IMG/VR virus record: IMGVR_UViG_2693429728_000012
Location: 1-13,971 of that record
DNA: 13,971 nucleotides
Strand: one strand, 5' to 3'
From: a virus
Lineage: Duplodnaviria > Heunggongvirae > Uroviricota > Caudoviricetes
This document shows positions 1 to 13,971 of the stretch, piece after piece. Positions within the stretch are counted from its first letter, which is position 1; every line of letters begins with the position of its first letter. The position numbers were made by a program, and so were the translations under genes. The notes beneath the pieces were generated by a model. The model was not told where the DNA came from. It worked only from the letters and a program-made list of their open reading frames with translations, and searched no databases.

Positions 1-699
<699 letters not shown>

Positions 700-1263
700 T
701 TAAGCCTCACTGATTACGGTATGAACCTTAGCTATAGGTTTTATATCACTAATATCACATTCAAATGAAAAACCATCCCCAGATACCATTGCTCTTTTGA
801 CTGGTATCAAATTGATTTTTTTAATACTCAGTTTTCCTTCTATATCCACCAACCATTGACCATCAGAAATGGTAGTGTCTTCTCGGTCACAAATGTAAAC
901 ATGTTGGTTAATTTTTATCGCTAATGCAGATTTTATTTCATTGAGAAGAAAGACTGGATCAATCTTGTGCGTTCCAAGTGCAATAGCCTCTCCATTTTTT
1001 AGTTCGCGAGTTTCAACGTCTACCAAAGAGTTGACTGCTGTGGTTTTTAACTCACCTTTCCCTGATACCAGCCAATCAATTGAAGTACCAGTTTCTACAA
1101 CGCATTGAAGTACCCAATCTGCTGGAAAAATGTCACGCATGTAGCGGGTTGCCATTGTGCTCTTTGAAACCCCTAAGTGGTCGCAAAGGGCCTGACGAGT
1201 GGTGAAACCATACGCCTCAACCAAACGTTCAATCACTTTCTTTCCGCCGCTATTGAAATTCAA
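700..1263 (-). CDS. cI: Phage 186-type CI immunity repressor (HTH N-domain plus C-terminal oligomerisation domain)
   Basis: ORF 700..1350; HTH-like segment ERLVEAYGFTTRQALCDHLGVSKSTMATRY followed by WLVSGKGE and a C-terminal SDGQWLVDIEG block recalled as 186 CI-like. Start uncertain: TTG at 1263 has a GGAGGA Shine-Dalgarno; alternatives are GTG 1236 and GTG 1350 (no SD). Stop TAA at 700-702. Confidence 0.75.
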   Translation of the reverse strand: MNFNSGGKKVIERLVEAYGFTTRQALCDHLGVSKSTMATRYMRDIFPADWVLQCVVETGTSIDWLVSGKGELKTTAVNSLVDVETRELKNGEAIALGTHKIDPVFLLNEIKSALAIKINQHVYICDREDTTISDGQWLVDIEGKLSIKKINLIPVKRAMVSGDGFSFECDISDIKPIAKVHTVISEA

Positions 1264-1290
1264 GAGTCCTCCAAAACAATCTAAATTGCA

Positions 1291-1319
1291 TTGACAGATT
1301 CCAAAAGCGATCTTAAAGT
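1291..1319 (+). promoter_or_regulatory. Candidate rightward lytic promoter (pR-like) for apl-cII-early operon
   Basis: TTGACA (1291-1296), 17-bp spacer, TAAAGT (1314-1319), about 90 bp upstream of the apl start. Its position is compatible with the face-to-face pR/pL arrangement known for 186. Confidence 0.35.
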
Positions 1320-1409
1320 TGACCTCGAAGTCTTCTTTTGGAGCCTTCACAACTAATCACGATAAACAACGGCTCGCCACAAGCCGAATTAAAGAAGGAA
1401 TGTTGCACC

Positions 1410-1631
1410 ATGAACCCAAACATTTCAATCACTCTGAACACACCACACGTCACAATTGAGCGTTATAGCGAACTTACTGGTCTTTCTATCGACACAATCA
1501 ACGATATGCTGGCTGATGGCCGCATCCCTCGGCATCGTCTCCGGAAGGACAAAAAAAGAGAAAAGGTAATGATCAACCTTGCTGCTCTTACCGTTGATGC
1601 ACTTACTGATTGCAATGTTGTATTCAACTAG
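1410..1631 (+). CDS. apl: Apl/Cox-like small DNA-binding protein (excisionase / lytic-switch repressor)
   Basis: 73-aa ORF starting at ATG 1410 with AAGGAA Shine-Dalgarno 9 nt upstream; divergent from cI; basic, small, first gene of the rightward operon as in 186 (apl) and P2 (cox). Confidence 0.7.
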
Positions 1632-1663
1632 TTCCATTTTGGGATATATCAGGGGTGTCGACT

Positions 1664-2173
1664 ATGTTTGATTACCAAGTTTCCAAACATCCACATTTTG
1701 ATGAAGCCTGTCGTGCATTCGCGTTGCGCCACAACCTGGTGCAACTGGCAGAACGTGCAGGCATGAATGTGCAGATTCTGCGGAACAAGCTGAACCCAGC
1801 TCAACCTCATTTATTAACCGCACCAGACATCTGGCTGCTTACCGATCTGACTGAGGATTCAACGCTGGTAGATGGTTTTCTGGCACAGATTCATTGTCTG
1901 CCATGTGTACCAATTAATGAGGTGGCAAAAGAGAAACTGCCACATTACGTCATGAGTGCAACCGCAGAGATCGGGCGTGTTGCTGCAGGTGCGGTTTCTG
2001 GCGATGTAAAAACCAGTGCAGGCCGTCGTGATGCGATCAGCAGCATTAACTCTGTTACACGACTGATGGCGCTGGCTGCTGTTTCATTGCAGGCCCGTTT
2101 ACAGGCTAATCCTGCGATGGCGAGTGCGGTTGATACCGTGACTGGCCTCGGTGCTTCATTCGGTTTGCTGTGA
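1664..2173 (+). CDS. cII: CII-like lysogeny-establishment transcriptional activator (186 CII family)
   Basis: 169-aa ORF from ATG 1664 (AGGGGTG Shine-Dalgarno at 1651-1657), the same length as 186 CII; N-terminus [19 protein letters not shown] and position immediately after apl. Confidence 0.75.
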
Positions 2174-2180
2174 GGTGCTT

Positions 2181-2477
2181 ATGCTTACGAAAGAACCATC
2201 ATTTGCATCGCTGCTGGTAAAGCAAAGCCCGGCAATGCACTACGGTCACGGCTGGATCATGGGTGAGGATGGTAAACGCTGGCATCCGTGCCGTTCACAA
2301 GATGAATTGCTGTCTGAATTGACCACGAGAAAATGGAGAAAGTCCAAATGTATGCGGCAGAAAGTGAAGTGGTTTATCAGTTTCGTTACAGAGGGGAGAG
2401 TTATTCAGTACCTGAAGATGATTTGCTCTGTTGCTATCCGTCGTTGTCGGGCGATGGTAGCTACTTTTTCACGCTAA
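2181..2477 (+). CDS. Hypothetical early protein (position of 186 fil/dhr-type small genes); 3' end uncertain
   Basis: ATG 2181 with GAGGTG Shine-Dalgarno directly after the cII stop. N-terminal half (…HGWIMGEDGKRWHPCRSQDEL) looks protein-like; the C-terminal part overlaps the next ORF in another frame and looks less so. Confidence 0.4.
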   Translation: MLTKEPSFASLLVKQSPAMHYGHGWIMGEDGKRWHPCRSQDELLSELTTRKWRKSKCMRQKVKWFISFVTEGRVIQYLKMICSVAIRRCRAMVATFSR

Positions 2478-2572
2478 AGGATGGAACCTTTATACGTGGT
2501 GAAAAAGTACAAGAAGTGATGCGTATAAAGACATCACCTCTTGAACGTTATCGGCGAAGTATTTATCGGTAA
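2348..2572 (+). CDS. Hypothetical small early protein
   Basis: ORF 2333..2572; ATG 2348 has GGAG 9 nt upstream. Translation MYAAESEVVYQFRYRGESYSVPEDDLLCCYPSLSGDGSYFFTLKDGTFIRGEKVQEVMRIKTSPLERYRRSIYR is compositionally protein-like. Confidence 0.45.
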   Translation: MYAAESEVVYQFRYRGESYSVPEDDLLCCYPSLSGDGSYFFTLKDGTFIRGEKVQEVMRIKTSPLERYRRSIYR

Positions 2573-2811
2573 CGATCTATCAGTGTCTGTATCAGATGAG
2601 TGAATTCTTGTTGTTTAACCGAACCTAAAGGAAGTTTGTTTAATTCTTCGCGGAGGAGCTCAAAAAATGCAGATTGATTTGCTGAGTCAGTTCGAAATAA
2701 GGAGTGGATCAGACCTGAAACAAGAATTCGTTGAACAGCAACCTCATCGCGAAGACTGGAGATCTCGTTTTCAAGTTGCTCTATACGCTCTCTTTCAACC
2801 GGGTTCAACAT
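2563..2811 (-). CDS. Hypothetical 82-aa helical protein encoded antisense to the early operon
   Basis: ATG at 2811 with AAGGA Shine-Dalgarno 7 nt upstream; translation MLNPVERERIEQLENEISSLRDEVAVQRIL… is clean and heptad-like. The competing plus-strand ORF 2667..2903 also has an SD (GAGGAG), so only one is likely real. Confidence 0.35.
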   Translation of the reverse strand: MLNPVERERIEQLENEISSLRDEVAVQRILVSGLIHSLFRTDSANQSAFFELLREELNKLPLGSVKQQEFTHLIQTLIDRYR

Positions 2812-2892
2812 TGATGATTCCTTCTAGCTATCAATATGTTGGTAATGGATCATATCAAAAATTTTTTAGTAGATGTGTTGTGGGATGCATAA

Positions 2893-3234
2893 ATGGCTAT
2901 TGAAGGCACTGCGGCGACTGTTCCATTAAGCCCCGGTGAACGCCTGAATGGACTTAATCACATTGCGGAGTTAAGGGCGAAAGTTTTTGGCCTGAATATT
3001 GAGTCAGAGCTTGAGCGGTTTATTAAAGATATGCGTGATTCACGGGATATTAATAGCGAACAAAATAAACGGGCACTGGCTGCCATATTCTTTATGGCAA
3101 AAATTCCAGCTGAACGTCATAGCATCAGCATTAATGAGCTGACCACTGACGAAAAGCGGGAGTTGATTAAAGCAATGAATCATTTTCGTGCAGTGGTGAG
3201 CTTATTTCCCAGACGGCTAACCATGCCGAATTAA
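2893..3234 (+). CDS. Hypothetical early-operon protein
   Basis: 113-aa ORF with a protein-like sequence throughout (…AELRAKVFGLNIESELERFIKDMRDSRD…); same orientation as the operon. Confidence 0.55.
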   Translation: MAIEGTAATVPLSPGERLNGLNHIAELRAKVFGLNIESELERFIKDMRDSRDINSEQNKRALAAIFFMAKIPAERHSISINELTTDEKRELIKAMNHFRAVVSLFPRRLTMPN

Positions 3235-3301
3235 CCAACTAATGAAATTAATGGCGTAAACCCGCCGGGCATCCCTTTATCTAAATTCAGGAGAATTGAT
3301 T

Positions 3302-3535
3302 ATGCGTAATATTGAAACCCTCTCGACCAAAACCGGACCGGATGACGCAGGGCTTAATATTTTACTGACAGAGGCTCGTCTGGAAGAACGCCGGGCAAGG
3401 GCTGAAGCAATGGCAGCTCGCCTTGATAGCCTGGCGTGTCATATCACATCCCGCCAGCTAACCCACGTCGAAGCGGCAGAACTGCTTCGTGTGACTGCTG
3501 AAGCAATCCAGAACGAAGCGCAGGAGATCCACTAA
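3302..3535 (+). CDS. Hypothetical small early protein
   Basis: ATG 3302 with CAGGAGA Shine-Dalgarno 7 nt upstream (the ORF track starts at TTG 3296); stop TAA overlaps the next ATG (TAATG). Confidence 0.6.
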   Translation: MRNIETLSTKTGPDDAGLNILLTEARLEERRARAEAMAARLDSLACHITSRQLTHVEAAELLRVTAEAIQNEAQEIH

Positions 3536-3762
3536 TGGCTGATGCAATGGATCTCGTACAGCAGCGCGTTGAAGAAGAACGCCAACGCCATATCCGTGCT
3601 GCCCGTGCCAAAACGCCGGGCGTGTCCCGCGTGCTTTGCATTGAGTGTGAAGCGCCAATTCCGCCAGCACGCCGCCGTGCCATTCCGGGTGTGCAGCTTT
3701 GCATTACCTGTCAGGAAATCGCAGAGCTGAAAGGCAAACATTACAACGGAGGTGCTGTATGA
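3535..3762 (+). CDS. TraR/DksA-family C4 zinc-finger protein
   Basis: 75 aa with CIECEAPIPP…CITCQ (CxxC-N17-CxxC), a typical phage TraR-like zinc finger; AGGAGA Shine-Dalgarno; translationally coupled on both sides. Confidence 0.8.
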   Translation: MADAMDLVQQRVEEERQRHIRAARAKTPGVSRVLCIECEAPIPPARRRAIPGVQLCITCQEIAELKGKHYNGGAV

Positions 3763-4616
3763 GCACCATCCTGAAATGGGCGGGAAATAAAACTGCCATA
3801 ATGTCCGAACTGAAAAAACATCTTCCTGCTGGCCCGCGACTGGTTGAACCTTTCGCGGGTTCCTGTGCTGTGATGATGGAGACGGATTATCCCAGCTATC
3901 TGGTTGCGGATATTAATCCTGATTTAATCAACCTCTATAAAAAGGTTGCCGCTGATTGTGAATCGTTTATATCTCGCGCCAGAGTTTTATTTGAGATCGC
4001 AAACAGGGAGGTGGCTTATTACAACATAAGGCAGGAGTTTAATTACTCAACTGAAATTACTGATTTCATGAAAGCGGTATATTTCCTGTATCTCAATCGT
4101 CACGGTTACCGTGGTTTATGTCGCTATAACAAGAGCGGGCATTTCAACATTCCCTACGGTAATTATAAAAATCCGTATTTCCCTGAAAAAGAAATTCGCG
4201 CATTTGCAGAAAAGGCCCAGCGAGCAACGTTTATCTGCGCCAGCTTTGATGAAACGCTGGCGATGTTGAAGGCGGGGGATGTGGTGTATTGCGATCCGCC
4301 GTATGACGGTACGTTTTCCGGCTATCACACTGACGGCTTCACTGAAGATGACCAGTATCACCTGGCATCTGTTCTTGAACATCGGTCATCAGAAGGACAT
4401 CCGGTCATTGTTTCTAACAGTGACACATCCCTGATCCGTTCGCTGTATCGCAATTTTACTCACCACTACATCAAGGCAAAACGCAGCATCGGTGTGGCAG
4501 CTGGCGAGGGTAAATCAGCAACAGAAATCATTGCTGTTTCCGGGCCGCGCTGCTGGGTGGGATTTGATTATTCGCGTGGCGTGGATAGTTCTGCCGTGTA
4601 CGGAGTACGTGCATGA
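3759..4616 (+). CDS. dam: DNA adenine methyltransferase (Dam-like, N6-adenine, orphan)
   Basis: ATG 3759 (ATGA overlap with the upstream stop, GGAGG Shine-Dalgarno). AdoMet motif EPFAGSCAV near the N-terminus and catalytic DPPY (YCDPPYDG); N-terminus [11 protein letters not shown] is typical of Dam-family enzymes. Confidence 0.85.
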
Positions 4617-7027
4617 GTCATGCCGATATGAACAACTGCTGCAGCTTTAACGAAGCTGCCGCATCGTTCTCATGGAACAGCCCGAAAAAGGCCATTAACC
4701 CTTATCTGGACCCGGCGGAAGTTGCGCCGGTTTCTGCGCTTTCAAACCTGATCACTCTGTACGCTACTGATAACGAGCAGGAACAACTGCGCCGCGAGGC
4801 ACTGAGTGATCAGGTCTGGGAGCGTTATTTCTTTAATGAATCCCGTGATCCTGTCCAACGCGAAATGGAGCAGGATAAGCTCATTAGCCGGGCAAAGATG
4901 GCGCATGAGCAGCAGCGTTTTAATCCAGACATGGTCATTCTGACTGACGTCAACGCCCAGCCTTCCCATATCAGCAAGCCGCTGATGCAACGTATTGAAT
5001 ATTTCAGCAGCCTGGGCAGGCCAAAGGCTTATTCCCGCTATTTGCGTGAGACGATTAAGCCATGTCTGGAACGACTGGAGCATGTACGCGACAGCCAGCT
5101 ATCTGCATCTTTTCGTTTTATGGCAAGCCATGAAGGGCTGGACGGTCTGATGATCCTGCCTGAAATGAGTCAGGATCAGGTGAAACGCCTGTCTACCCTT
5201 GTCGCTGCGCATATGAGCATGTGTCTTGATGCCGCTTGTGGTGATTTGTACGCCTCCGATGATGTTAAGCCAGAAGAAATCCGCAAGACATGGGAAAAGG
5301 TGGCTGCAGAAACCCTGCGACTGGATGTCATACCGCCAGCGTTTGAGCAACTCCGCCGGAAAAGAAACCGCCGCAAACCTGTGCCTTATGAACTCATTCC
5401 GGGTTCGCTGGCGCGTATGCTGTGCGCCGACTGGTGGTATCGGAAATTATGGAAGATGCGTTGCGAATGGCGGGAAGAGCAGTTGCGTGCTGTCAGCCTG
5501 GTCAGCAAAAAAGCATCTCCCTATGTCAGCTATGAAGCCGTGATGCATAAACGTGAGCAGCGCCGTAAGTCGCTGGAGTTTTTCCGTTCTCATGAACTGG
5601 TGAACGAAGACGGCGACACGCTGAACATGGAGGATGTGGTAAACGCCAGCAGCAGCAACCCGGCGCATCGCCGCAACGAGATGATGGCCTGTGTTAAAGG
5701 CCTGGAGCTTATCGCGGAAATGCGTGGTGACTGCGCCGTTTTCTACACCATCACCTGTCCGTCACGTTTCCATTCCACGCTAAATAACGGCAGGCCAAAC
5801 CCGACCTGGACCAACGCGACAGTAAGACAAAGCAGCGATTATCTGGTCGGCATGTTTGCTGCATTTCGTAAGGCTATGCACAAAGCCGGGTTGCGCTGGT
5901 ATGGCGTGCGGGTGGCTGAGCCGCATCATGACGGCACAGTTCACTGGCACCTGTTGTGTTTCATGCGCAAAAAAGACCGCCGCGCCATTACTGCATTGTT
6001 GCGTAAGTTTGCCATCCGTGAAGACCGCGAGGAGCTGGGCAATAACACGGGGCCACGCTTTAAGTCTGAGCTGATAAACCCGCGCAAAGGAACGCCGACA
6101 AGCTACATTGCGAAATATATCAGTAAGAATATTGACGGGCGTGGTCTGGCTGGCGAGATCAGTAAGGAAACAGGTAAATCCCTGCGTGATAACGCTGAAT
6201 ACGTTAATGCCTGGGCGTCTCTGCATCGTGTTCAGCAATTCCGCTTCTTTGGCATTCCGGGGCGTCAGGCTTACCGTGAACTGCGATTGCTGGCTGGTCA
6301 GGCGGCAAGGCAACAGGGTGACAAAAAAGCAGGTGCGCCGGTACTGGATAACCCGCGCCTTGATGCCATCCTGGCTGCTGCTGATGCTGGTTGTTTTGCC
6401 TCCTACATCATGAAGCAGGGCGGCGTACTGGTTCCCCGCAAATATCACCTCATCAGAACCGCTTATGAAATCAACGAAGAGCCGACCGCCTATGGCGATC
6501 ACGGTATTCGTATTTATGGCATCTGGTCACCCATTGCAGAGGGCAAGATCTGCACTCATGCAGTGAAGTGGAAAATGGTTCGTAAGGCCGTTGACGTTCA
6601 GGAGGCGGCAGCCGACCAGGGCGCTTGCGCCCCTTGGACTCGTGGCAATAACTGTCCCCTTGCTGAAAATTTGTACCAACAAGGGAAAGACAAATCAGCT
6701 GATGGAGATACCAGAACGGATATCACCCGTATGGATGACAAGGAGTTGCACGATTACCTGCACAGTATGAGCAAAAAAGAGCGCCGGGAACTGGCAGCAA
6801 GATTACGCCTGGTTAAACCGAAACGACGTAAAGACTACAAACAGCGAATTACAGAGTATCAGCGTCAGCAGCTCGTCTATGAACTGAAGTCCAGAGGATT
6901 TGATGGCAGCGAGAAAGAAGTCGATTTGCTCCTTCGCGGTGGCAGTATTCCATCAGGAGCAGGCCTGCGTATCTTCTATCGGAACCAGCGTCTGAAGGAA
7001 GATGATAAGTGGCGGAACCTGTATTAA
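4613..7027 (+). CDS. A: Replication initiator endonuclease A (P2 gpA-type HUH rolling-circle nickase)
   Basis: 804-aa ORF, ATG overlapping the dam stop (ATGA). HUH motif HWHLLCF ([11 protein letters not shown]) and tyrosine motif YIAKYISK; size and position match P2/186 gene A. Confidence 0.9.
6627..6648 (+). other. Candidate rolling-circle origin (nick site) inside the A coding sequence
   Basis: gcgccccttggactcgtggcaa resembles my recollection of the P2 ori nick region (GCGCC..GGAGTC..TG.CAA), which lies in the 3' part of gene A; here it is about 84% into A. Recalled, not verified. Confidence 0.3.
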
Positions 7028-7121
7028 TTACGCGGGTTAACAATTCGTGCTCTTAATAATACCAGGCATATCAGGCTGATGAACGTAAAAAAACGTTTTA
7101 CATCAGTAAGATTATTATATA

Positions 7122-7137
7122 CTGTAAATATAAACAG
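7122..7137 (+). promoter_or_regulatory. LexA operator (SOS box) overlapping the promoter of the downstream small-ORF/dinI-like pair
   Basis: aCTGTAAATATAAACAGtg is a full CTGT-N8-ACAG match to the LexA consensus. It overlaps -10-like hexamers (TATACT 7118-7123, TATAAA 7129-7134), about 45 bp upstream of ATG 7181. Confidence 0.7.
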
Positions 7138-7180
7138 TGGTTATGTATACAGTATTGCTTGTGGTGTCATAGGAGGAAAG

Positions 7181-7369
7181 ATGCAGGACTATTTTTTGGA
7201 GTCTTTGAAGCTCCAGCGCATTGATTTTTTTCTTAAGCTTGTAGCGGCTAGTGAGTGTAGTGATGAAGAGAAGGGGCTGGCTCTGCAGTGGGTTTCTGAA
7301 CTGACAGATGAACTCATGGCAAAAATCAGAACCCACGAATACAACCGCTCAATGGATGTCATCAGCTGA
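7181..7369 (+). CDS. SOS-regulated small protein (possible N-terminal part or partner of a Tum-like antirepressor)
   Basis: 62-aa ORF from ATG 7181 with a strong AGGAGGAAAG Shine-Dalgarno. The ORF-track start at 7079 runs through the promoter and LexA box, so the internal start is preferred. Confidence 0.5.
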   Translation: MQDYFLESLKLQRIDFFLKLVAASECSDEEKGLALQWVSELTDELMAKIRTHEYNRSMDVIS

Positions 7370-7379
7370 GGTGACTTTT

Positions 7380-7613
7380 ATGCGCATTGAAATAATGATC
7401 GATAAAGAGCAGAAGATTAGCCAGTCTACCCTGGACGCCCTTGAATTCGAGCTTTACCGCAATCTGCGCCCCCTATATCCAAAAACGGTAATTCGTATCC
7501 GCAAAGGTAGCTCTAACGGTGTGGAACTTACCGGATTGCAACTGGACGAAGAAAGAAAACAAGTGATGAAAATTATGCAGAAAGTGTGGGAAGACGACAG
7601 CTGGCTGCATTAA
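7380..7613 (+). CDS. DinI-like protein (DinI/Tum C-domain family)
   Basis: ATG 7380 with GAGGTG Shine-Dalgarno. MRIEIMIDKEQKISQSTLDALEFELYRNLRPLYP…KVWEDDSWLH follows the E. coli DinI pattern (MRIEVTIAK…AGAIDALAGEL…ETWESADDW), recalled from memory. Confidence 0.75.
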   Translation: MRIEIMIDKEQKISQSTLDALEFELYRNLRPLYPKTVIRIRKGSSNGVELTGLQLDEERKQVMKIMQKVWEDDSWLH

Positions 7614-7621
7614 GAAACGTT

Positions 7622-7660
7622 GCCCCCAAGAGGATTCATTCGAATGGGGGCTAGTTTGGG
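7622..7660 (+). terminator. Possible terminator after the dinI-like gene
   Basis: GCCCCCA…(palindrome CATTCGAATG)…TGGGGGC followed by TAGTTTGGG; the stem is GC-rich but the loop is large and the T-tract weak. Confidence 0.3.
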
Positions 7661-7798
7661 CAATGAGTGAAATAAGGCGTAAGGTGGGTGGTCATTTTGA
7701 TAAATGATCGTCCGCTTTGTGCCAGAAGCGAACGTTTCTTCTGCTATCTTTCGTCAATTAACGAATGGCAGACTAATTTGCAACGGATAATCTGAATT

Positions 7799-7825
7799 TT
7801 GTAAGATTATGGGTATTCCTATAAT
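7799..7825 (+). promoter_or_regulatory. Candidate sigma70 promoter for the KAP NTPase gene
   Basis: TTGTAA (7799-7804), 15-bp spacer, TATAAT (7820-7825), in an AT-rich intergenic region upstream of ATG 7935; spacer is shorter than optimal. Confidence 0.25.
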
Positions 7826-7934
7826 ATTTACCAATAATAACCTTACAATGTACACTACCTATTGAATTTTCCATAGTTGGCCTTTGGCTCTACTTACCAT
7901 CTATGTTTATGTATTTTATCAAAATGGACTAAAA

Positions 7935-9827
7935 ATGCACAATACGTACATCAAAGACTATATAGAATATTACCTTAGCCTTAAAACTGAACCTCAATAC
8001 GCCATTATGCTTAAAGGTGCTTGGGGATCAGGTAAAACTTGGTTCATTGAACGAGTTCTTGAAGAATATAAGCAAAAGCATTCAGAGTTCAAATTTCTTA
8101 AAGTGAGTTTGTATGGCGTCAACTCTATTGAGCAGATTGAAGATGAGTTCTATCGTCAACTTCATCCTATTCTATCAAACAAAGCCCTTATCTTTGGTGC
8201 AAATGTACTAAAAAATACGCTTAAGGCTACTTTCAAGATCGATTTCAATGGCGATAATAAGTCTGACGTAGATGTCAATGCCAGTGTCCCCACCATTAAT
8301 CTTAGCGACTTTAGCAGAGAACCAGATGGTTTTGTGCTGGTCTTTGATGATATCGAGAGAGCTGGTATAGATTTACCAATCTTATTTGGATATATAAATC
8401 ACTTTGTAGAAGTAAACGGATACAAAGCGATCCTGGTTGCCAATGAAGAAGAAATAATCAACAGAGAAAAGCGAATAAATAATGATGATGAGAAATCTAG
8501 CAGTGAATACATAAGAACAAAAGAAAAGCTTGTAGGTAAAACATTTGAAGTAACGTCAGATTTACATAGTGCTTGTAATATTTTCTTGGGCGTAATTAGT
8601 AGTTTACACGTAGCTAATATATTTAAAGAAGATATGCAGACCATAGAACACCTCTATGTGTCGGCGAAATATAATAATCTAAGACATTTGAGGCAGTTCT
8701 TTCTTGATGTACAACGCATCATTTCCCTTTTGGGAGATAAATATGTCAGCAACGACGATTTTATGAAAGTATTTTTCCAGCAGTTATTAATTTTCTCGAT
8801 GGAGTACCGGGGAGGGAACCTTAACTACGAGGATTTCAATTCAATCGGCAATGTAAATTATAGTATGTTTTTAGATAAAGGGCGTGCCAAAACTAAGTAT
8901 GATATGATCGTCGAGAAATATTCATCACCTGTATTAACCGAGACGTTACTGGATGGTGCGTACTGGAGAGAGCTAATCTGTGATGGAAAGGTAACGCATG
9001 ATCTTCTCGCTCAGCTGGATATTACGCGATTTTTTAGAAGCACCGATGCCCAAGCATGGGAGTATTTGTGGAACTATCGAGAACTTAATGAAACTATTCT
9101 TAATGAACAGTACGCCATTGCCAAGGATAATCTATTTTCAGGTAAGATCACTTCCTTAGGTGAACTCCTGATGACCGCGAGTATTTTGCTGGCATTGGCG
9201 AAAGAAGGTTTAACCACAGATGCTGTTGATGACATTATAAATGAGACAAAACATCATATAGATATTTATTACAATGGATTAGGACCTGAAGATATACATC
9301 AGGAGTATGCGCAAAGACATTATAATGAGTTAATGGCATGGCGTGGCTTTGGTTTTCTTGACAGGGATAGCGATGAATTCAAACTCATTATTGAGCATAT
9401 TAAGATAGCGCAGAAGAAACGGTTTGATGAATCAATTCCGGAGTTTGCATTGAAGTTCAGCGATGAGTTGCAAAGAGGAAATTTATCGTTTGTATCTGAA
9501 TTGTGTCATTCTAATAATAGGCAGCTAAATCTTCATAACGTGCCTTTTTTACACTTGGTTTCTCCTGAAGTTTTCATTGAAAGCTATAGGAAACTTGACC
9601 CAATCATCATGAGGAAACTGGCATTTAGCTTGAGGGATCGTTATTCTGATAGGGATGCCAGAACCAGACTGACCGAAGAATACAACTGGTTGATTAGCCT
9701 AAAAGAGATAGCTGTAGATTTCACTCAAAACGCAGCCAATAACTCCTTTCAGGTTTTTCATGTAAAGTTTTTTATTGACTATGCACTAACTAATGCAATC
9801 AAATTATTTACTGAGGGAACTGATTAA
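7935..9827 (+). CDS. KAP-family P-loop NTPase (full length, about 630 aa), probable accessory/defense cargo
   Basis: Walker A GAWGSGKT near the N-terminus and Walker B VLVFDDIER about 120 aa later, with a long alpha-helical C-terminal region. First in-frame ATG is 7935 (the ORF track begins at TTG 7884). Strongly AT-rich compared with flanking A and Q/P genes. Confidence 0.85.
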   Translation: MHNTYIKDYIEYYLSLKTEPQYAIMLKGAWGSGKTWFIERVLEEYKQKHSEFKFLKVSLYGVNSIEQIEDEFYRQLHPILSNKALIFGANVLKNTLKATFKIDFNGDNKSDVDVNASVPTINLSDFSREPDGFVLVFDDIERAGIDLPILFGYINHFVEVNGYKAILVANEEEIINREKRINNDDEKSSSEYIRTKEKLVGKTFEVTSDLHSACNIFLGVISSLHVANIFKEDMQTIEHLYVSAKYNNLRHLRQFFLDVQRIISLLGDKYVSNDDFMKVFFQQLLIFSMEYRGGNLNYEDFNSIGNVNYSMFLDKGRAKTKYDMIVEKYSSPVLTETLLDGAYWRELICDGKVTHDLLAQLDITRFFRSTDAQAWEYLWNYRELNETILNEQYAIAKDNLFSGKITSLGELLMTASILLALAKEGLTTDAVDDIINETKHHIDIYYNGLGPEDIHQEYAQRHYNELMAWRGFGFLDRDSDEFKLIIEHIKIAQKKRFDESIPEFALKFSDELQRGNLSFVSELCHSNNRQLNLHNVPFLHLVSPEVFIESYRKLDPIIMRKLAFSLRDRYSDRDARTRLTEEYNWLISLKEIAVDFTQNAANNSFQVFHVKFFIDYALTNAIKLFTEGTD

Positions 9828-9890
9828 CATTTTGTTGATTAACATAGGTAATATTATTAGAAGTACTAGACATGGTCAGTAAAATTATTA

Positions 9891-9924
9891 AAGTCCGCTT
9901 CGCTCGAAGCGGACTTTGTGCTTT
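9891..9924 (+). terminator. Rho-independent terminator downstream of the KAP NTPase gene
   Basis: Perfect inverted repeat aagtccgcttcg-ct-cgaagcggactt followed by tgtgcttt. Confidence 0.6.
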
Positions 9925-10045
9925 ATAAAAACGAGAGTTTTGTTTTTCAAGCGGTCATTCGGTTACGGGATTTCACTTCCCCCGTAAGTGCATGACTATG
10001 CCGCATGAGATCGCATGATCGTTTGCGGATCGTTTTTGCCAAGGT

Positions 10046-10067
10046 CCGCCAGAACTGGCGGGCTTTT
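10046..10067 (+). terminator. Second rho-independent terminator (or 3' end of a small transcript)
   Basis: ccgcca-gaac-tggcgg, a 6-bp GC stem with tetraloop, followed by gctttt. Confidence 0.45.
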
Positions 10068-10112
10068 GCGTAGATCATGCAGGTGCATGAAAACCACTAC
10101 ATAAAGTGGGCA

Positions 10113-10131
10113 GGCGTGGCGGGGATACGAG
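10113..10131. other. Candidate cos site (cohesive-end sequence) of a P2/186-like phage
   Basis: GGCGTGGCGGGGA matches the start of the 19-nt cohesive end I recall for 186/P2 (GGCG[T/A]GGCGGGGAAAGCA…), and it sits between the A-side cargo and Q where cos is expected. Downstream bases diverge from the recalled sequence. Confidence 0.4.
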
Positions 10132-10289
10132 CGCGCGCAACGAGGTGAAATAGCAAAACTCGGCACAGCCTACGGCCCGCTAGCGGCTTCAAATTGAAAT
10201 GGTGAGGTGCAGCAGCAAAAAAACCGCCCCACAGGAAGTTGTTGAGGTTGTTTATTGAGGGAATTGGCTTAAGCGGTAAAACACAAACA

Positions 10290-10318
10290 TTGCAACTTGT
10301 GCATGAAATTGATACATT
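10290..10318 (+). promoter_or_regulatory. Candidate promoter for the 223-aa unknown gene
   Basis: TTGCAA (10290-10295), 17-bp spacer, TACATT (10313-10318), about 30 nt upstream of ATG 10351, which has a GGGGTG Shine-Dalgarno-like sequence. Confidence 0.25.
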
Positions 10319-10350
10319 GTGCGTAATGTGTCTATATTGCGGGGTGTTTT

Positions 10351-11022
10351 ATGGCTTTCAGAGCGGAAGAAGCAGCAGCATCGAATTTCGAAAATGCTTA
10401 CAGATATCTAGTTCCACAAGGTTCAAATCAGGAGATGCGTTCGAAAGTTAGGGCGAAGCTCAAAGAAATTGTTGAAGAATGTGGGCCAGTAGTGGATGGG
10501 TATCCAGCATGGCACCCTTTTTTGCTGGAAAGAGATAAAGCTATTTGGGCGCCTATGACTCCCAATAATACTCCTAGCTTTAAATACCTGGACCACACGG
10601 TCTATTTCAGGAACGGCATTCTTACCTGTCCTTATGGTCATGGGGTTGATGAATTTATAGCTGGTATAAAACGTCTAAAGCACACGGATGCCCATTTCTC
10701 TATTGAGAAGATTGATGACGTTGTGCTTTATAATGACAACGCCGTCCCGTTGTTAATAAAATGCCATTGGCTTATTTCGGAAGATATGGAAGAGGATGGC
10801 ACCATTCCAGCAAAAGCAGCAATTGGATTGATGCTTGAAAGCGAGGTTCCTAACTGGCGGCATGCAGTTTATTGTGAAAATTGGGAAGATATGCGCGGGC
10901 AGTTGATGGGATATCCGCACGGTGCCAGATCATCTCTATTTGTTAATCAGCAGACAGGACAGAAAATGAAAAACTTCTGGAATCAGCTGATTAAGACCGG
11001 AATTCTTGGGGAAGAGCGATAA
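10351..11022 (+). CDS. Hypothetical 223-aa protein of unknown function (cargo gene between cos and portal gene)
   Basis: Clean ORF with a protein-like sequence and no motif I recognise; has its own putative promoter and a downstream hairpin; convergent with Q; moderately AT-rich. Confidence 0.7.
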   Translation: MAFRAEEAAASNFENAYRYLVPQGSNQEMRSKVRAKLKEIVEECGPVVDGYPAWHPFLLERDKAIWAPMTPNNTPSFKYLDHTVYFRNGILTCPYGHGVDEFIAGIKRLKHTDAHFSIEKIDDVVLYNDNAVPLLIKCHWLISEDMEEDGTIPAKAAIGLMLESEVPNWRHAVYCENWEDMRGQLMGYPHGARSSLFVNQQTGQKMKNFWNQLIKTGILGEER

Positions 11023-11035
11023 TTTCTTGAGGCTT

Positions 11036-11066
11036 AGCTGCGCCTTTAACAAGCAGAGGCGCTGCT
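11036..11066. terminator. Bidirectional terminator candidate between the convergent 223-aa gene and Q
   Basis: gcgcct-ttaacaagcag-aggcgc, with an inner agcag/ctgct stem, followed by tttttaaattt; lies in the 52-bp gap between two convergent stop codons. Confidence 0.4.
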
Positions 11067-11074
11067 TTTTAAAT

Positions 11075-12124
11075 TTAGCTATCGTTGTTTGTGTCTATTC
11101 CCAGCGTGTAGGGCTCGAAGCGGATCACCTCTTTACCTAGCCAGTAATTCAGCTCCTGCAGCCGCTTTTGCAGCGGCATCAGTTCATTGCGGACGAAGAC
11201 ACGGCTCGCTTTTTCCACATCCCCAAAACCCCCAACATTATTCGGCATAATCCCCATCATTTGCGGTGGCACACGATGCGCCGCCATCATGTCATCCCGG
11301 CTCACGTTCTTGATGTTCAGAAACTCATCCTTCGCCGCGACTTCTGACAACGGGATGATCTGAAGCCCGTCCTTTTTGCCGTTAGGCGAGTACATAAACA
11401 GATTGCGGAAGTTACCTGGTCCTTTGGCGCTTTTCATCGCATTGCGGAGGTTGTTCACATCCTCCTGGTTTTGCGCGGCATCGGTCATGTACATGATGAA
11501 GCCTGCATGACTGCCGTTAATGTAATACTTTCGGCGGAACAGCGTGGCGGACTCGTTGAGCAGGGCTGACGGAATGGCAGAAAGATAACCTGGCAGGCCG
11601 TAGATCTCCTGGTTGATGTCCGGTTCCATCAGATGAAAGATGCTGCCTTTCGTAAACTGATACGGCTGCGTGGTCATGCCGTATTGCACAAACCAGTAGG
11701 TATCCAGGTCTAACCCGCGTCGGGTGTATTTTGCCAGGGCCGGTTCAAGGACGATAACTTCACCGAAGCGGTTCGTGCGTTTCTCCAGGTAGGCGTTACC
11801 AAATACCAGATAGTCCTGCACAAAACGTGAAAAAGCCTGCTGGCTGAGCAGCGGGTGAGGGATGTAGGTGCTGGTCAGAATGTTGCACTTTACTGCAATC
11901 GGGGAACTGTGATGCACGGCGGCGCGAAAGGTGCGCGCCAGCCCGTCGAAACTCACTGGCGGCTCATACCAACGATCTGTCTGTACGCATTCCACATAGT
12001 CCAGCAGTTCGCGGCGGTCCAGAACAGGAACGGGATCACCGAAGCTGAATGCTTCGGCTGAAGTCTGGCTTTTATGCTGGATCTGGTTCGTCGACGCAGC
12101 GCGGTTCTTCTTACTCTTTCCCAT
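11075..12124 (-). CDS. Q: Portal (capsid portal/head completion) protein, P2 gpQ-like
   Basis: About 349 aa, N-terminus MGKSKKNR…; size, orientation and adjacency to the terminase match P2 Q. ATG 12124..12122 overlaps the P stop (TGATG); the ORF-track start at 12127 is TTG. Confidence 0.85.
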   Translation of the reverse strand: MGKSKKNRAASTNQIQHKSQTSAEAFSFGDPVPVLDRRELLDYVECVQTDRWYEPPVSFDGLARTFRAAVHHSSPIAVKCNILTSTYIPHPLLSQQAFSRFVQDYLVFGNAYLEKRTNRFGEVIVLEPALAKYTRRGLDLDTYWFVQYGMTTQPYQFTKGSIFHLMEPDINQEIYGLPGYLSAIPSALLNESATLFRRKYYINGSHAGFIMYMTDAAQNQEDVNNLRNAMKSAKGPGNFRNLFMYSPNGKKDGLQIIPLSEVAAKDEFLNIKNVSRDDMMAAHRVPPQMMGIMPNNVGGFGDVEKASRVFVRNELMPLQKRLQELNYWLGKEVIRFEPYTLGIDTNNDS

Positions 12125-13890
12125 CAAAAAATCTCCACAATATTGCTGGTATTGGCGGACTCGCCCTGCAGCGGTTCGTTAAACAGTGCGTGCATGGTTG
12201 CCCAGGCCAGATCGGCATGGCTGGCTTCTTCGCTGCGGCTGGCTTCATAGGTCGGGCGGTTGCCGCTGGCGGTGGTGGCGCGACGGATTGCCATAAATGA
12301 CTGCGCTATGTCGGTGTGTCCGGCGTCAAACTCCAGACGGCGGTGACTGATAATGTCGTAGGCCTTGAGTACCAGGGCGTTTTTAACGTTGGGGTTGTAG
12401 ACAAACTCCCGGACGGCTGGAAAAAACGCTTTCACGTTCTCGTAAACCCCGTGACCAACGCCGGTTGAGTCGATACCGATATAAGTCACGTTGTACTGTT
12501 CGGTAAGTTTTTTGATGGCGTCAGCCTGGGCGCGGAAGTCCATCCCGCGCCACTGGTGACGCTCAAGAATGCGGAACTTACCACCCGGCACGGCTGGCGG
12601 TGCCACCACCACGCATCCAGCGCTGTCGCCGTTTTGCGTACCTTTTGCCGGGTCATAACCGATCCACACTTCGCGCCAGCCAAACGGGCGCAGTGCCAGT
12701 GCATGAAAGTCGGTCCAGACTTCCCAACTGTCCACCATGCACGCCTGCAGCTCGCTGAGCGGAAACACGGACGCGAGATCGTCCACAAACTCGCACATCA
12801 GCAGGTTCTGGTATTCGTCCGGGCTGTACTCCATGCGTAGCTGGTCGAGGTCGAACAGGTTACAGCCGCCGCGCACCGCATCTTCCACGGTGACTATCTG
12901 GCGGTACTGCCCGTCTGCGCACAGCAGGCCGGGGGCTAGATTGCTGTGGGACAGGTCGATGTCCACCTTATCGGCTTTGTTGCGCCCACGGTTGAACAGC
13001 GCACCGGACCAGAACGGATAAGCACTGTGTGTCAGACTGGATGGCGTGGAAAAATAGGTTTGTCGCCATTTTTTGTGAATAGCCATACCGGAAGCCACTT
13101 TGCGCAGCTCCTGGAATTTCGGTATCCAGAAATATTCATCCAGATACAGGTTGCCGTGGTAACTCTGGGCCGTGCGGGCATTGGTGCCGAGGAAGTAAAG
13201 CGTGGCCCCGTTAGGAAGCACCATCGGATCGCCTTTCAGCTCCACCTCCACTTCTTTGGCAAAGTCGATGATGTACTGTTTAAAGACGTGGGCCTGAGCC
13301 TTGCTGGCAGAAAGGAAAATCTGGTTACGCCCGGTCAGCAGGGCGTCAATCAGGGCTTCACGGGCAAAGTAAAAGGTCGCGCCGATCTGGCGTGACTTCA
13401 GCAGGTTGCGGATGCGGTTGGTTTTTCCGGCTTCCCACCAGTGGCGCTGGTAGTTGAACATAGAGGAATTGAAGATTTCTTCCAGTTTCTCAATCTGTTC
13501 ATCGGTGAAAACATTCTTTTCCGGCTGACGACGTGGGCCTTTGTTGCGGTTGGCAACGTTAGGGTTTAAGTCGGCTTCGTTGCCGCCATTGTTAAACTTG
13601 CCGATCCGCGCGTGGCGCTCAGACTGGCGTGCCAGCAGGTCAATTTCTTTGAAATCTTTCCCTTCTTTGTGCTCCTTCATAATGAGCTGGCAGTAGCGTG
13701 CGGCGGTGGTGAGCTGCATCTGATCCAGCGGCCCATAGTCACCCCACTTGTCGCGTTTTTTCCAGCTGTGAACGGTTGCAACTTTCTCGCCCAGCATTTC
13801 AGCAATGCGGGCGACGCGGTATCCCTGAAAGTACAGCAGCATGGCCTGCCGACGGGGATCGAGGTCTGCGGGTGTCAGTGTGGTGTTCAT
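12124..13890 (-). CDS. P: Terminase large subunit (ATPase/nuclease), P2 gpP-like
   Basis: 588-aa ORF from ATG 13890; size and position upstream of Q are characteristic of P2-like terminase P, and the sequence is protein-like throughout. Confidence 0.85.
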   Translation of the reverse strand: MNTTLTPADLDPRRQAMLLYFQGYRVARIAEMLGEKVATVHSWKKRDKWGDYGPLDQMQLTTAARYCQLIMKEHKEGKDFKEIDLLARQSERHARIGKFNNGGNEADLNPNVANRNKGPRRQPEKNVFTDEQIEKLEEIFNSSMFNYQRHWWEAGKTNRIRNLLKSRQIGATFYFAREALIDALLTGRNQIFLSASKAQAHVFKQYIIDFAKEVEVELKGDPMVLPNGATLYFLGTNARTAQSYHGNLYLDEYFWIPKFQELRKVASGMAIHKKWRQTYFSTPSSLTHSAYPFWSGALFNRGRNKADKVDIDLSHSNLAPGLLCADGQYRQIVTVEDAVRGGCNLFDLDQLRMEYSPDEYQNLLMCEFVDDLASVFPLSELQACMVDSWEVWTDFHALALRPFGWREVWIGYDPAKGTQNGDSAGCVVVAPPAVPGGKFRILERHQWRGMDFRAQADAIKKLTEQYNVTYIGIDSTGVGHGVYENVKAFFPAVREFVYNPNVKNALVLKAYDIISHRRLEFDAGHTDIAQSFMAIRRATTASGNRPTYEASRSEEASHADLAWATMHALFNEPLQGESANTSNIVEIF

Positions 13891-13936
13891 GGCACAAACC
13901 TACAGCCTTGAATGAAGGCTTTCCCCGCCTGCGGTT

Positions 13937-13954
13937 TGTGTGGTTGTCGGTACA
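13937..13954 (-). promoter_or_regulatory. Candidate P2-type late promoter activator site (Ogr/B-type TGT-N12-ACA dyad) upstream of P
   Basis: Minus-strand reading TGTACCGACAACCACACA is TGT-N12-ACA, centred about 55 bp upstream of the P start codon; P2 late promoters carry such a dyad near -55. Confidence 0.35.
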
Positions 13955-13971
13955 AATACCGCGCATTGTTT

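Follow-up and report, generated by a model that had tools for sequence, protein, structure and literature searches.

The stretch of DNA that we analysed, 13,971 nucleotides comprising positions 1 to 13,971 of the IMG/VR virus record IMGVR_UViG_2693429728_000012 (hereafter the window), comes from a P2-like prophage of Escherichia coli, and the portion of it used in searches (7620-11080) was 99.9% identical to NC101, NGF-1 and others. On one side of its cos region lies a gene for a KAP-family NTPase, and on the other, between cos and the portal gene Q, lies a 223-codon open reading frame (ORF) that we call X. An earlier note, made from the sequence alone, had picked out positions 10240-11074, which amount to this ORF and its flanks, as encoding a protein without assignable motif in its own transcription unit, and had proposed it as cargo that might serve defence, anti-defence or lysogenic conversion, either independently of the KAP NTPase or together with it. 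The features discussed below are collected in the following table.

Features of the window. Positions count from the first letter of the window, except for the motifs of X, which are given in residue numbers of the protein.
Feature	Position	Strand	Details
Dam methylase	3699-4616		Pfam
Replication gene A	4613-7027		Pfam Phage_GPA
KAP-family NTPase	7884-9827	+	Pfam
P2-type cos region	10081-10139		core GGCGTGGCGGGGATACGAG at 10113-10131; left edge of the variable slot
Variable cos-Q cargo slot	10140-11074		occupied here by the X cassette
Promoter candidate A	10290-10318	+	-35 TTGCAA (10290-10295), 17-nt spacer, -10 TACATT (10313-10318); read from the sequence
Putative operator site 1	10297-10306	+	TTGTGCATGA; pattern TYRYGCRYRA
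Promoter candidate B	10309-10338	+	sigma-70-like TTGATA, 18-nt spacer, TATATT; scan match 10/12
Putative operator site 2	10317-10326	+	TTGTGCGTAA; exactly 20 bp from site 1
Shine-Dalgarno-like GGGG	10341-10344	+	6 nt 5' of the ATG; GAGG in relatives
Gene X	10351-11022	+	223 amino acids, ATG start, 25.5 kDa, isoelectric point 5.8; identical to WP_000885505.1 'hypothetical protein'
Conserved motifs of X	residues		MAFR 1-4, GP 45-46, YPxWHP 51-56, DH 81-82, CPY 93-95, E176, W178, GxPxGxRSSxF 187-197
Intrinsic-terminator-like hairpin and TTTTT	11036-11066 and 11067-11071	+	directly before the Q stop codon
Portal gene Q	11075-12127	-	Pfam Phage_portal
Terminase gene P	12124-13890	-	Pfam

The layout described in the earlier note stood up to inspection: a single plus-strand ORF is preceded by promoter-like hexamers, followed by a hairpin and a run of Ts, and convergent with Q, from which it is separated by 52 bp. 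The start codon is backed by the N-terminus, MAFRA[DE]E, which is common to the family. The energy of the hairpin was by itself ordinary (centroid energy -15.9 kcal/mol, z -0.58), and the pattern of a stem followed by a T-run was enriched in the hairpin region (7 sites versus 1.1 expected). In pairwise comparisons with P2-like relatives the ratio of nonsynonymous to synonymous substitution rates (dN/dS) was 0.04-0.16, and across P2-like prophages the identity of X dropped in step with that of the portal, from 100 to 55% for X and from 98 to 62% for Q. X is a real gene on which purifying selection acts. It is also an autonomous single-gene accessory cassette, or 'moron', in which one gene is flanked by an operator-controlled promoter and a terminator: a promoter and a terminator of its own can be recognised as consensus-level sequence patterns, its GC content (43-44%) is unlike that of the flanking Q and P genes (52-60%) and of the KAP gene (33-40%), and it is found in only 24 of 5,426 complete E. 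coli genomes, as against 1,248 in which the flanks match.

The most distinctive part of the cassette, absent from the earlier note, is an operator array that travels with the gene. Alignment of the regions upstream of X and its homologues brought out a set of two or three palindromes, each 10 bp long and matching TYRYGCRYRA (ideal TTATGCATAA). They lie exactly 20 bp apart and alternate with the -35 and -10 elements. The pair made by sites 1 and 2 is the only one in the window, where 0.05 would be expected. Among 121 non-identical upstream regions, 71 contained a core pair at 19-24 bp, compared with 1.2 (maximum 5) in dinucleotide shuffles, and the histogram of core-pair spacings contained 89 pairs at 20 bp, 36 at 40 bp and nearly none between. 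When we searched 1.99 Mb of flanking sequence from 127 loci for strict arrays, 35 of 35 fell within 160 nt upstream of X and none elsewhere. The same array stands upstream of homologues in phages, integrative and conjugative elements (ICEs), plasmids and islands across phyla, and X is the sole gene that always accompanies it.

The form of the array follows the protein. Besides the short clade to which X belongs, the family has a long sister clade (about 311 amino acids, with a C-terminal extension) that begins with MEFRxP rather than MAFRA[DE]E. A GC-centred pair at 20 bp was present at 75 of 118 short-clade loci and at none of 16 long-clade loci, whereas an ACGT-centred array was present at none of the former and 8 of the latter; the long-clade sites are TYACGTRA-type palindromes (TTACGTAA sites) spaced 18 bp apart. 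A second sister clade, carried on plasmids, retains the GC-centred 20-bp pair (8826-8835 and 8846-8855 in locus L170, from an E. coli IncFII plasmid). Because the short and long clades are both present in Enterobacterales and in Alphaproteobacteria, the type of site tracks the protein clade and not the host.

Tandem palindromic operators interleaved with a promoter are familiar from autoregulated dimeric repressors, such as phage CI and Cro at OR, omega, ParG and CopG. The array of X resembles the OR regions of CI/Cro-type repressors and the operators of ribbon-helix-helix (RHH) repressors in having two or three palindromes, placed at regular intervals of about two helical turns, over the -35 and -10 elements, and likewise in changing its type of site with the protein clade. 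From the co-travel of the array with the gene and its clade-specific form, we consider it likely that X binds these palindromes as a dimer and represses its own transcription. The part of the protein that reads DNA might then be the invariant N-terminus (M-x-F-R, then two helices), a weak suggestion that we make because these elements are common to all clades and the residues after them differ by clade.

Two promoter candidates can be drawn within the array. The hexamers of candidate A, together with a downstream GAGG, have been kept in P2-like relatives whose remaining intergenic sequence diverged, and transcription from its predicted start, near 10325, would produce a leader of roughly 25 nt that includes the Shine-Dalgarno element. 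Candidate B fits the family-wide layout, in which the -35 element lies between sites 1 and 2 and the -10 element after site 2 (anchored consensus of 69 loci), and would start transcription at or past the Shine-Dalgarno element, at about 10345. Whichever candidate is used, sites 1 and 2 overlap the predicted core promoter, so that X, like an autoregulated repressor, has conserved putative operator sites over its own promoter. An Ogr-type late promoter (TGT-N12-ACA) and LexA, CRP and FNR boxes were also considered for the X promoter and rejected as misfitting the sequence or unconserved. A scan of 9700-11300 against Rfam returned no RNA family.

The protein itself belongs to an uncharacterised family. 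We found 203 full-length matches among protein clusters at 90% identity, and an exhaustive search of 1.84 billion representative proteins with a hidden Markov model yielded only 288 clusters (50% identity), nearly all of 215-230 amino acids in both cases; the long clade comprises more than 835 clusters, and its C-terminal extension contains no Pfam domain. The earlier note had been unable to assign a motif, and library searches agreed: X had no match in Pfam, PHROGs, PADLOC or NCBIfam, with PADLOC v2 searched at E values up to 1, and when all 42 sequences of the alignment were run against Pfam with E values allowed up to 10, scattered noise was the only result. tblastn of X against 50,697 sequenced phage genomes also found no match. 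The remote-homology search and structural comparison that the note had proposed led to no characterised family. A profile of the family had no significant match among PDB sequences, where the best hit, the CBS region of AMPK gamma (E 0.11), was rejected as chance. An AlphaFold2 model built from the 42-sequence alignment was confident (predicted local distance difference test score 90.7, predicted template modelling score 0.88) and has two N-terminal helices followed by a predicted alpha/beta domain of four strands and further helices; Foldseek comparison of this model with PDB and BFVD returned nothing with E below 0.1.

Conservation points to a possible functional site. Among 244 family members, G45, Y51-P52-x-W54-H55-P56, W178, G187-x-P189 and S195 are at least 95% conserved, D81-H82, C93-P94-Y95, E176, S194 and F197 are 90-94% conserved, and M1 and F3 at the N-terminus are 86-89% conserved. 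The conserved polar residues suggest an enzyme or a ligand pocket, and there are weak grounds for regarding the rest of X (H55, D81-H82, C93, E176, S194-S195) as a catalytic or ligand-binding pocket. Specific assignments failed: the R-S-E motif of ADP-ribosyltransferases, the HxT motif of 2H phosphoesterases, PD-(D/E)xK and His-Cys box endonucleases each had the wrong motif order or spacing and no fold match, as did a zinc site built from H55, H82, C93 and C138, in which both cysteines are replaceable. X appears to be a soluble, cytoplasmic, mildly acidic protein, with no obvious signal peptide or membrane segment by eye (no predictor was run).

One genome was searched for each of 185,579 species, and the 166 matching stretches came from Alpha-, Beta- and Gammaproteobacteria, Verrucomicrobiota, Bacteroidota and further groups. 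Homologues of 40-60% identity lie between the lysis genes and terminase of lambdoid prophages of Klebsiella and Pectobacterium, a Mu-like Roseibium prophage has one within its head cluster, and others adjoin integrases. In Tn4371-like ICEs, which make up 12 of the 81 genome loci used to count conserved neighbours, X stands between DUF736 and a gene for a large ParB_N protein that lies within about 450 bp and is followed by DUF932 and RadC. Homologues also occur in a Marinobacter island by mercury-resistance and pyocin genes, in an Acinetobacter island with DUF932 and adjoining YefM/YoeB, and, by an Abi family gene, in an Aeromonas record from a plasmid collection that also carries terminase. 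The second sister clade (282 amino acids) was found by tblastn on about 200 plasmids, of which 158 are predicted to be conjugative; in the IncFII plasmid mentioned above (NZ_CP021538.1; L170, 8826-9732), the one in which this adjacency was read, the homologue begins with MFRANEE and lies directly downstream of repA. Long-clade homologues adjoin ParB_N and Toprim/DUF7146 genes in Sphingomonas and, in Morganella morganii (319 amino acids; L150-L152, 7001-7960), lie at the edge of an island by the host speF operon. This island carries a Zn-ribbon/Toprim/DUF927 primase, and its gene order looks P4-like by eye.

No neighbouring gene family was common to more than 12 of the 81 loci, and X has no conserved partner gene. 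A complete Thoeris pair (a TIR-domain ThsB of 191 amino acids and a TM-Macro ThsA of 278, E 1e-127 to the PADLOC model; L033, 7243-8688, also L035 and L037) is low-GC cargo of a Tn4371-like ICE common to several genera; it is disrupted in L040, and ThsA is split in the Variovorax copy. We rejected it as a partner of X, from which it lies 1.3 kb upstream in only 4 near-identical ICE copies, with the backbone DUF736 gene between. In Serratia marcescens (L095-L097, 8001-8669), X is intact within a decayed P2-like remnant whose gpA (448 amino acids), portal (179-193) and terminase (367-377) are truncated, and there it adjoins HicB and an Eco57I-like methylase/restriction gene; X is under selection even in a dead prophage.

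X shares with the morons of temperate phages its single gene, its own promoter and terminator, a differing base composition and a position at module junctions (cos-Q in P2-like phages, lysis-terminase in lambdoid prophages, within the head cluster in the Mu-like prophage). Unlike the usual moron, a concept reportedly due to Juhala and Hendrix with lambda bor as an example, it carries its own operator array, and several phyla have it in ICEs, genomic islands and conjugative plasmids as well.

The slot that X occupies is variable, as the earlier note had surmised for this region. The annotated 59-bp cos of Escherichia phage Cartapus aligns without gaps, base for base, to 10081-10139, and the likeness stops abruptly at 10139; E. 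coli prophages with the KAP gene but without X lose similarity at about 10138-10156. Between cos and Q, Cartapus has a gene for a DUF4145 protein, an E. coli prophage with the same KAP gene (L012) has a 97-amino-acid ORF, and sister prophages with P and Q 97-100% identical carry other genes. Among complete E. coli genomes, mapping of presence and absence placed X in one prophage lineage, with other cargo in its stead in sister prophages. The slot of the E. coli MIN6 prophage (L013, 6152-8028) holds a ParA-like gene and a 264-amino-acid SIR2 protein with ThsA-, LmuA- and Dsr1-like PADLOC matches, a pair that may be an unnamed two-gene defence candidate. The cassette can also lie on the other side of cos: L112, a P2-like contig from IMG/VR, has X on the gpA side (8001-8660, with cos at 8785-8831) and a different gene, of 246 amino acids, in the cos-Q slot.

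Lying between A and Q and adjoining cos, X falls within the gpA-gpQ interval, the whole of which is the published old/tin hotspot of P2-like phages (PMC9122126; 10.1101/2024.10.15.618418). The supplementary locus table of Rousset et al. 2022 lists the same arrangement, with X as 'hypothetical' and KAP and X in one block (PMC9122126). The main text of that paper names 3 of 8 additional cloned systems that worked, X not being among the 3, and we saw no sign there that X was among the systems tested (PMC9122126); the accession WP_000885505.1 was not found in literature full texts. X has in common with the hotspot cargo of P2 (old, tin) its class of locus, its own promoter, an atypical GC content and swapping among similar prophages. 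It differs in lacking sequence or fold similarity to old (an ATPase-TOPRIM nuclease), tin or any other listed hotspot system, and in its place on the Q side of cos, old and tin lying on the A side of the P2 map.

Taken as a whole, the explanation that we prefer is that X is a self-regulated accessory cassette with a protective exclusion role, which we hold tentatively and rate a little below an even chance. A dimer of X would sit on the palindromes over its own -35 and -10 elements and repress its own transcription, self-repression would keep the amount of X in the lysogen low and steady, no matter which element carries it, and the single protein would give the host a function supplied by the element, namely exclusion of, or defence against, incoming phages in conflicts between mobile elements. 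The role itself, protection of the host or element by exclusion or defence, we put lower, as a possibility that we lean to and would not call probable. It is favoured by the hotspot itself, by the defence-type genes found as alternates or neighbours (SIR2, a PD-Lambda-5-like protein, PDC-M03, a type II restriction endonuclease, Thoeris and an Abi family protein) and by the retention of X in the Serratia remnant, and on balance defence is marginally favoured over anti-defence and over a regulator. X showed no similarity to a known or candidate defence protein in PADLOC v2 (E up to 1), and its accession did not appear in the text of the DefensePredictor supplements.

Several observations weigh against this reading. 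Only about 21% of hotspot cargo groups are recognisable defence genes (10.1101/2024.10.15.618418), and partition systems and toxins also occur in the gpA-gpQ hotspot (10.1101/2024.10.15.618418; PMC9122126). The contexts of X in ICEs (ParB_N, DUF932, RadC) and in the IncFII plasmid (repA) fit establishment or anti-defence equally. Neither Pfam nor profile searches detected a helix-turn-helix (HTH), RHH or winged-helix domain in X, and a profile of the N-terminal 48 amino acids matched nothing meaningful in PDB, only designed repeat proteins, which leaves the RHH idea unsupported. Binding by X is read solely from co-travel and covariation with clade, and this covariation amounts to a single switch between clades. 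That the predicted fold has no known counterpart is a statement limited to PDB and BFVD. Finally, C93 and C138 are each replaced in some members of the wider family, and a cysteine-based site is therefore doubtful.

The strongest competitor, which we nonetheless consider unlikely, is that X is a counter-defence or establishment factor that helps an incoming phage, ICE or plasmid to beat immunity or to establish itself, after which self-repression shuts X off. An early burst followed by shut-off is the pattern of some leading-region and early genes, and tight negative autoregulation would suit such a gene. The ParB_N-linked position in the Tn4371-like ICEs, the ParB_N and Toprim/DUF7146 neighbours in Sphingomonas, the primase-bearing island in Morganella and the many conjugative plasmids all point the same way, as does the fact that in cos phages X adjoins the end of the genome. 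Against this, X matched no known anti-defence family in the libraries searched and nothing in the sequenced phage genomes; it is intact in the decayed, non-inducible Serratia remnant, where such a factor has no obvious use; in the IncFII plasmid it lies by repA and not by oriT; and its gene in the window has a promoter of housekeeping type and runs convergently with the late operon.

A bolder reading, in which X represents a new class of single-polypeptide mobile module, seems to us equally unlikely. Here an unseen fold would combine a new DNA-binding element with an enzyme-like domain: the M-x-F-R N-terminus would read the TTATGC/GCATAA-type palindromes, X would sit self-repressed on its operator until an invading element released or activated it for exclusion or counter-defence, and the module could be carried by phages, ICEs and plasmids in many phyla.

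More doubtful again is a role for X as a mobile transcription regulator whose large domain senses a ligand and which rewires genes of the host or of a competitor element (lysogenic conversion). The array, its clade-specific type of site and its fixed spacing are indeed those of a dimeric regulator, and a lone perfect site (TTATGCGTAA) lies at 3300-3309 in the window, at the start of the ORF 3296-3535. The number of single sites in the window does not exceed chance, however (4 versus 1.46 expected), and so we place no weight on this one. All strict arrays in the 2 Mb of flanks mark X's own promoter, the spread over many phyla would require targets conserved in all of them, the invariant His, Asp-His, Ser-Ser and Glu over a 180-amino-acid domain look more like an enzyme than a sensor, and none of the three DNA-binding domain types named above was detected.

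We regard as improbable the proposal that X is an addiction or retention module, with a self-repressing DNA-binding part and a growth-inhibiting domain in a fused toxin-antitoxin-like protein that penalises loss of the element. The single-gene cassette with its tight autoregulation, the retention of X in a decayed prophage and its places by repA and by YefM/YoeB would accord with this, but there is no second gene and no evident labile/stable pair, so that the adjacent toxin and antitoxin of a type II system are missing; no similarity to toxin or antitoxin families appeared in Pfam, PHROGs, PADLOC or NCBIfam; and X is freely swapped among near-identical prophages, which an effective module should resist.

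The suggestion that X and the KAP NTPase act together as a two-gene system across cos is very improbable. All 24 complete E. coli genomes that bear X also have the KAP gene, and the two share one block in Rousset's table, but these 24 copies, identical at 99.3% or more, represent a single prophage lineage. The same KAP gene and cos occur without X in at least 21 further E. coli genomes, with the 97-amino-acid ORF or the ParA-like and SIR2 genes in the slot instead. In IMG/VR P2-like contigs, where X lies beside Q, the gpA side of cos has at least nine different contents, among them a PD-Lambda-5-like protein, a fused PDC-M03, a type II restriction endonuclease, HicB and several unknowns, and no KAP gene lies near the homologues of lambdoid and Mu-like prophages, ICEs or plasmids. 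The co-occurrence data contradict a partnership. Since each gene is found without the other and the gpA-side contents vary, X and the KAP NTPase, which flank cos, are independent modules that are inherited separately, the other possibility that the earlier note had allowed. PADLOC, moreover, classes the KAP NTPase as a single-gene candidate, PDC-S49, to which it matches end to end (E 1e-160; also phrog_4740). Like X, PDC-S49 is single-gene cargo of the same prophage and the same hotspot; it is an unrelated protein with separate inheritance on the other side of cos.

That X is spurious, or that it is a P2 structural or packaging protein that has diverged, outcomes that the earlier note had said would refute its view and for which nothing speaks beyond the position by cos, Q and P, is excluded by purifying selection, by hundreds of full-length homologues (many outside phages), by the confident fold model, by the lack of homology to P2 virion or terminase proteins in PHROG and Pfam, and by the absence of X from most P2-like phages.

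Some neighbouring features deserve mention in their own right. Near-identical copies of the KAP NTPase occur in many E. coli P2-like prophages, with varied cos-Q cargo. Directly 3' of the KAP stop codon, a perfect 13-bp inverted repeat at 9889-9918 (AAAGTCCGCTTCG/CGAAGCGGACTTT) is terminator-like on both strands and is probably the terminator of the KAP gene. Outside the window, the NC101 prophage has two further cargo slots: one holds a second KAP-family NTPase adjoining the integrase (L001, 804-2135), and the other a 250-amino-acid hypothetical gene on the opposite strand (L001, 22053-22805) between the virion morphogenesis gene and the baseplate gene V, a gap that we take to be the position of the P2 orf30 site.

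Hotspot cargo and morons are known classes, and X had already been catalogued as 'hypothetical'; what is new here is the definition of the family, a predicted fold without a match in PDB or BFVD, and an operator array that moves with the gene and differs between clades. The gpA-gpQ hotspot is a proven source of new immune systems whose cargo is mostly unannotated, and X is a well-defined candidate from that pool: a partner-free single gene whose conservation extends from prophages of E. coli to ICEs and to conjugative plasmids, including IncFII. Its operator array offers both an experimental handle and a means of finding the cassette in genomes. Should X prove to act in defence or counter-defence, that field would gain a new fold and perhaps a new mode of DNA recognition; should it prove to do neither, it would still show that a 'cargo' gene can take a regulatory circuit of its own into very different elements and hosts.

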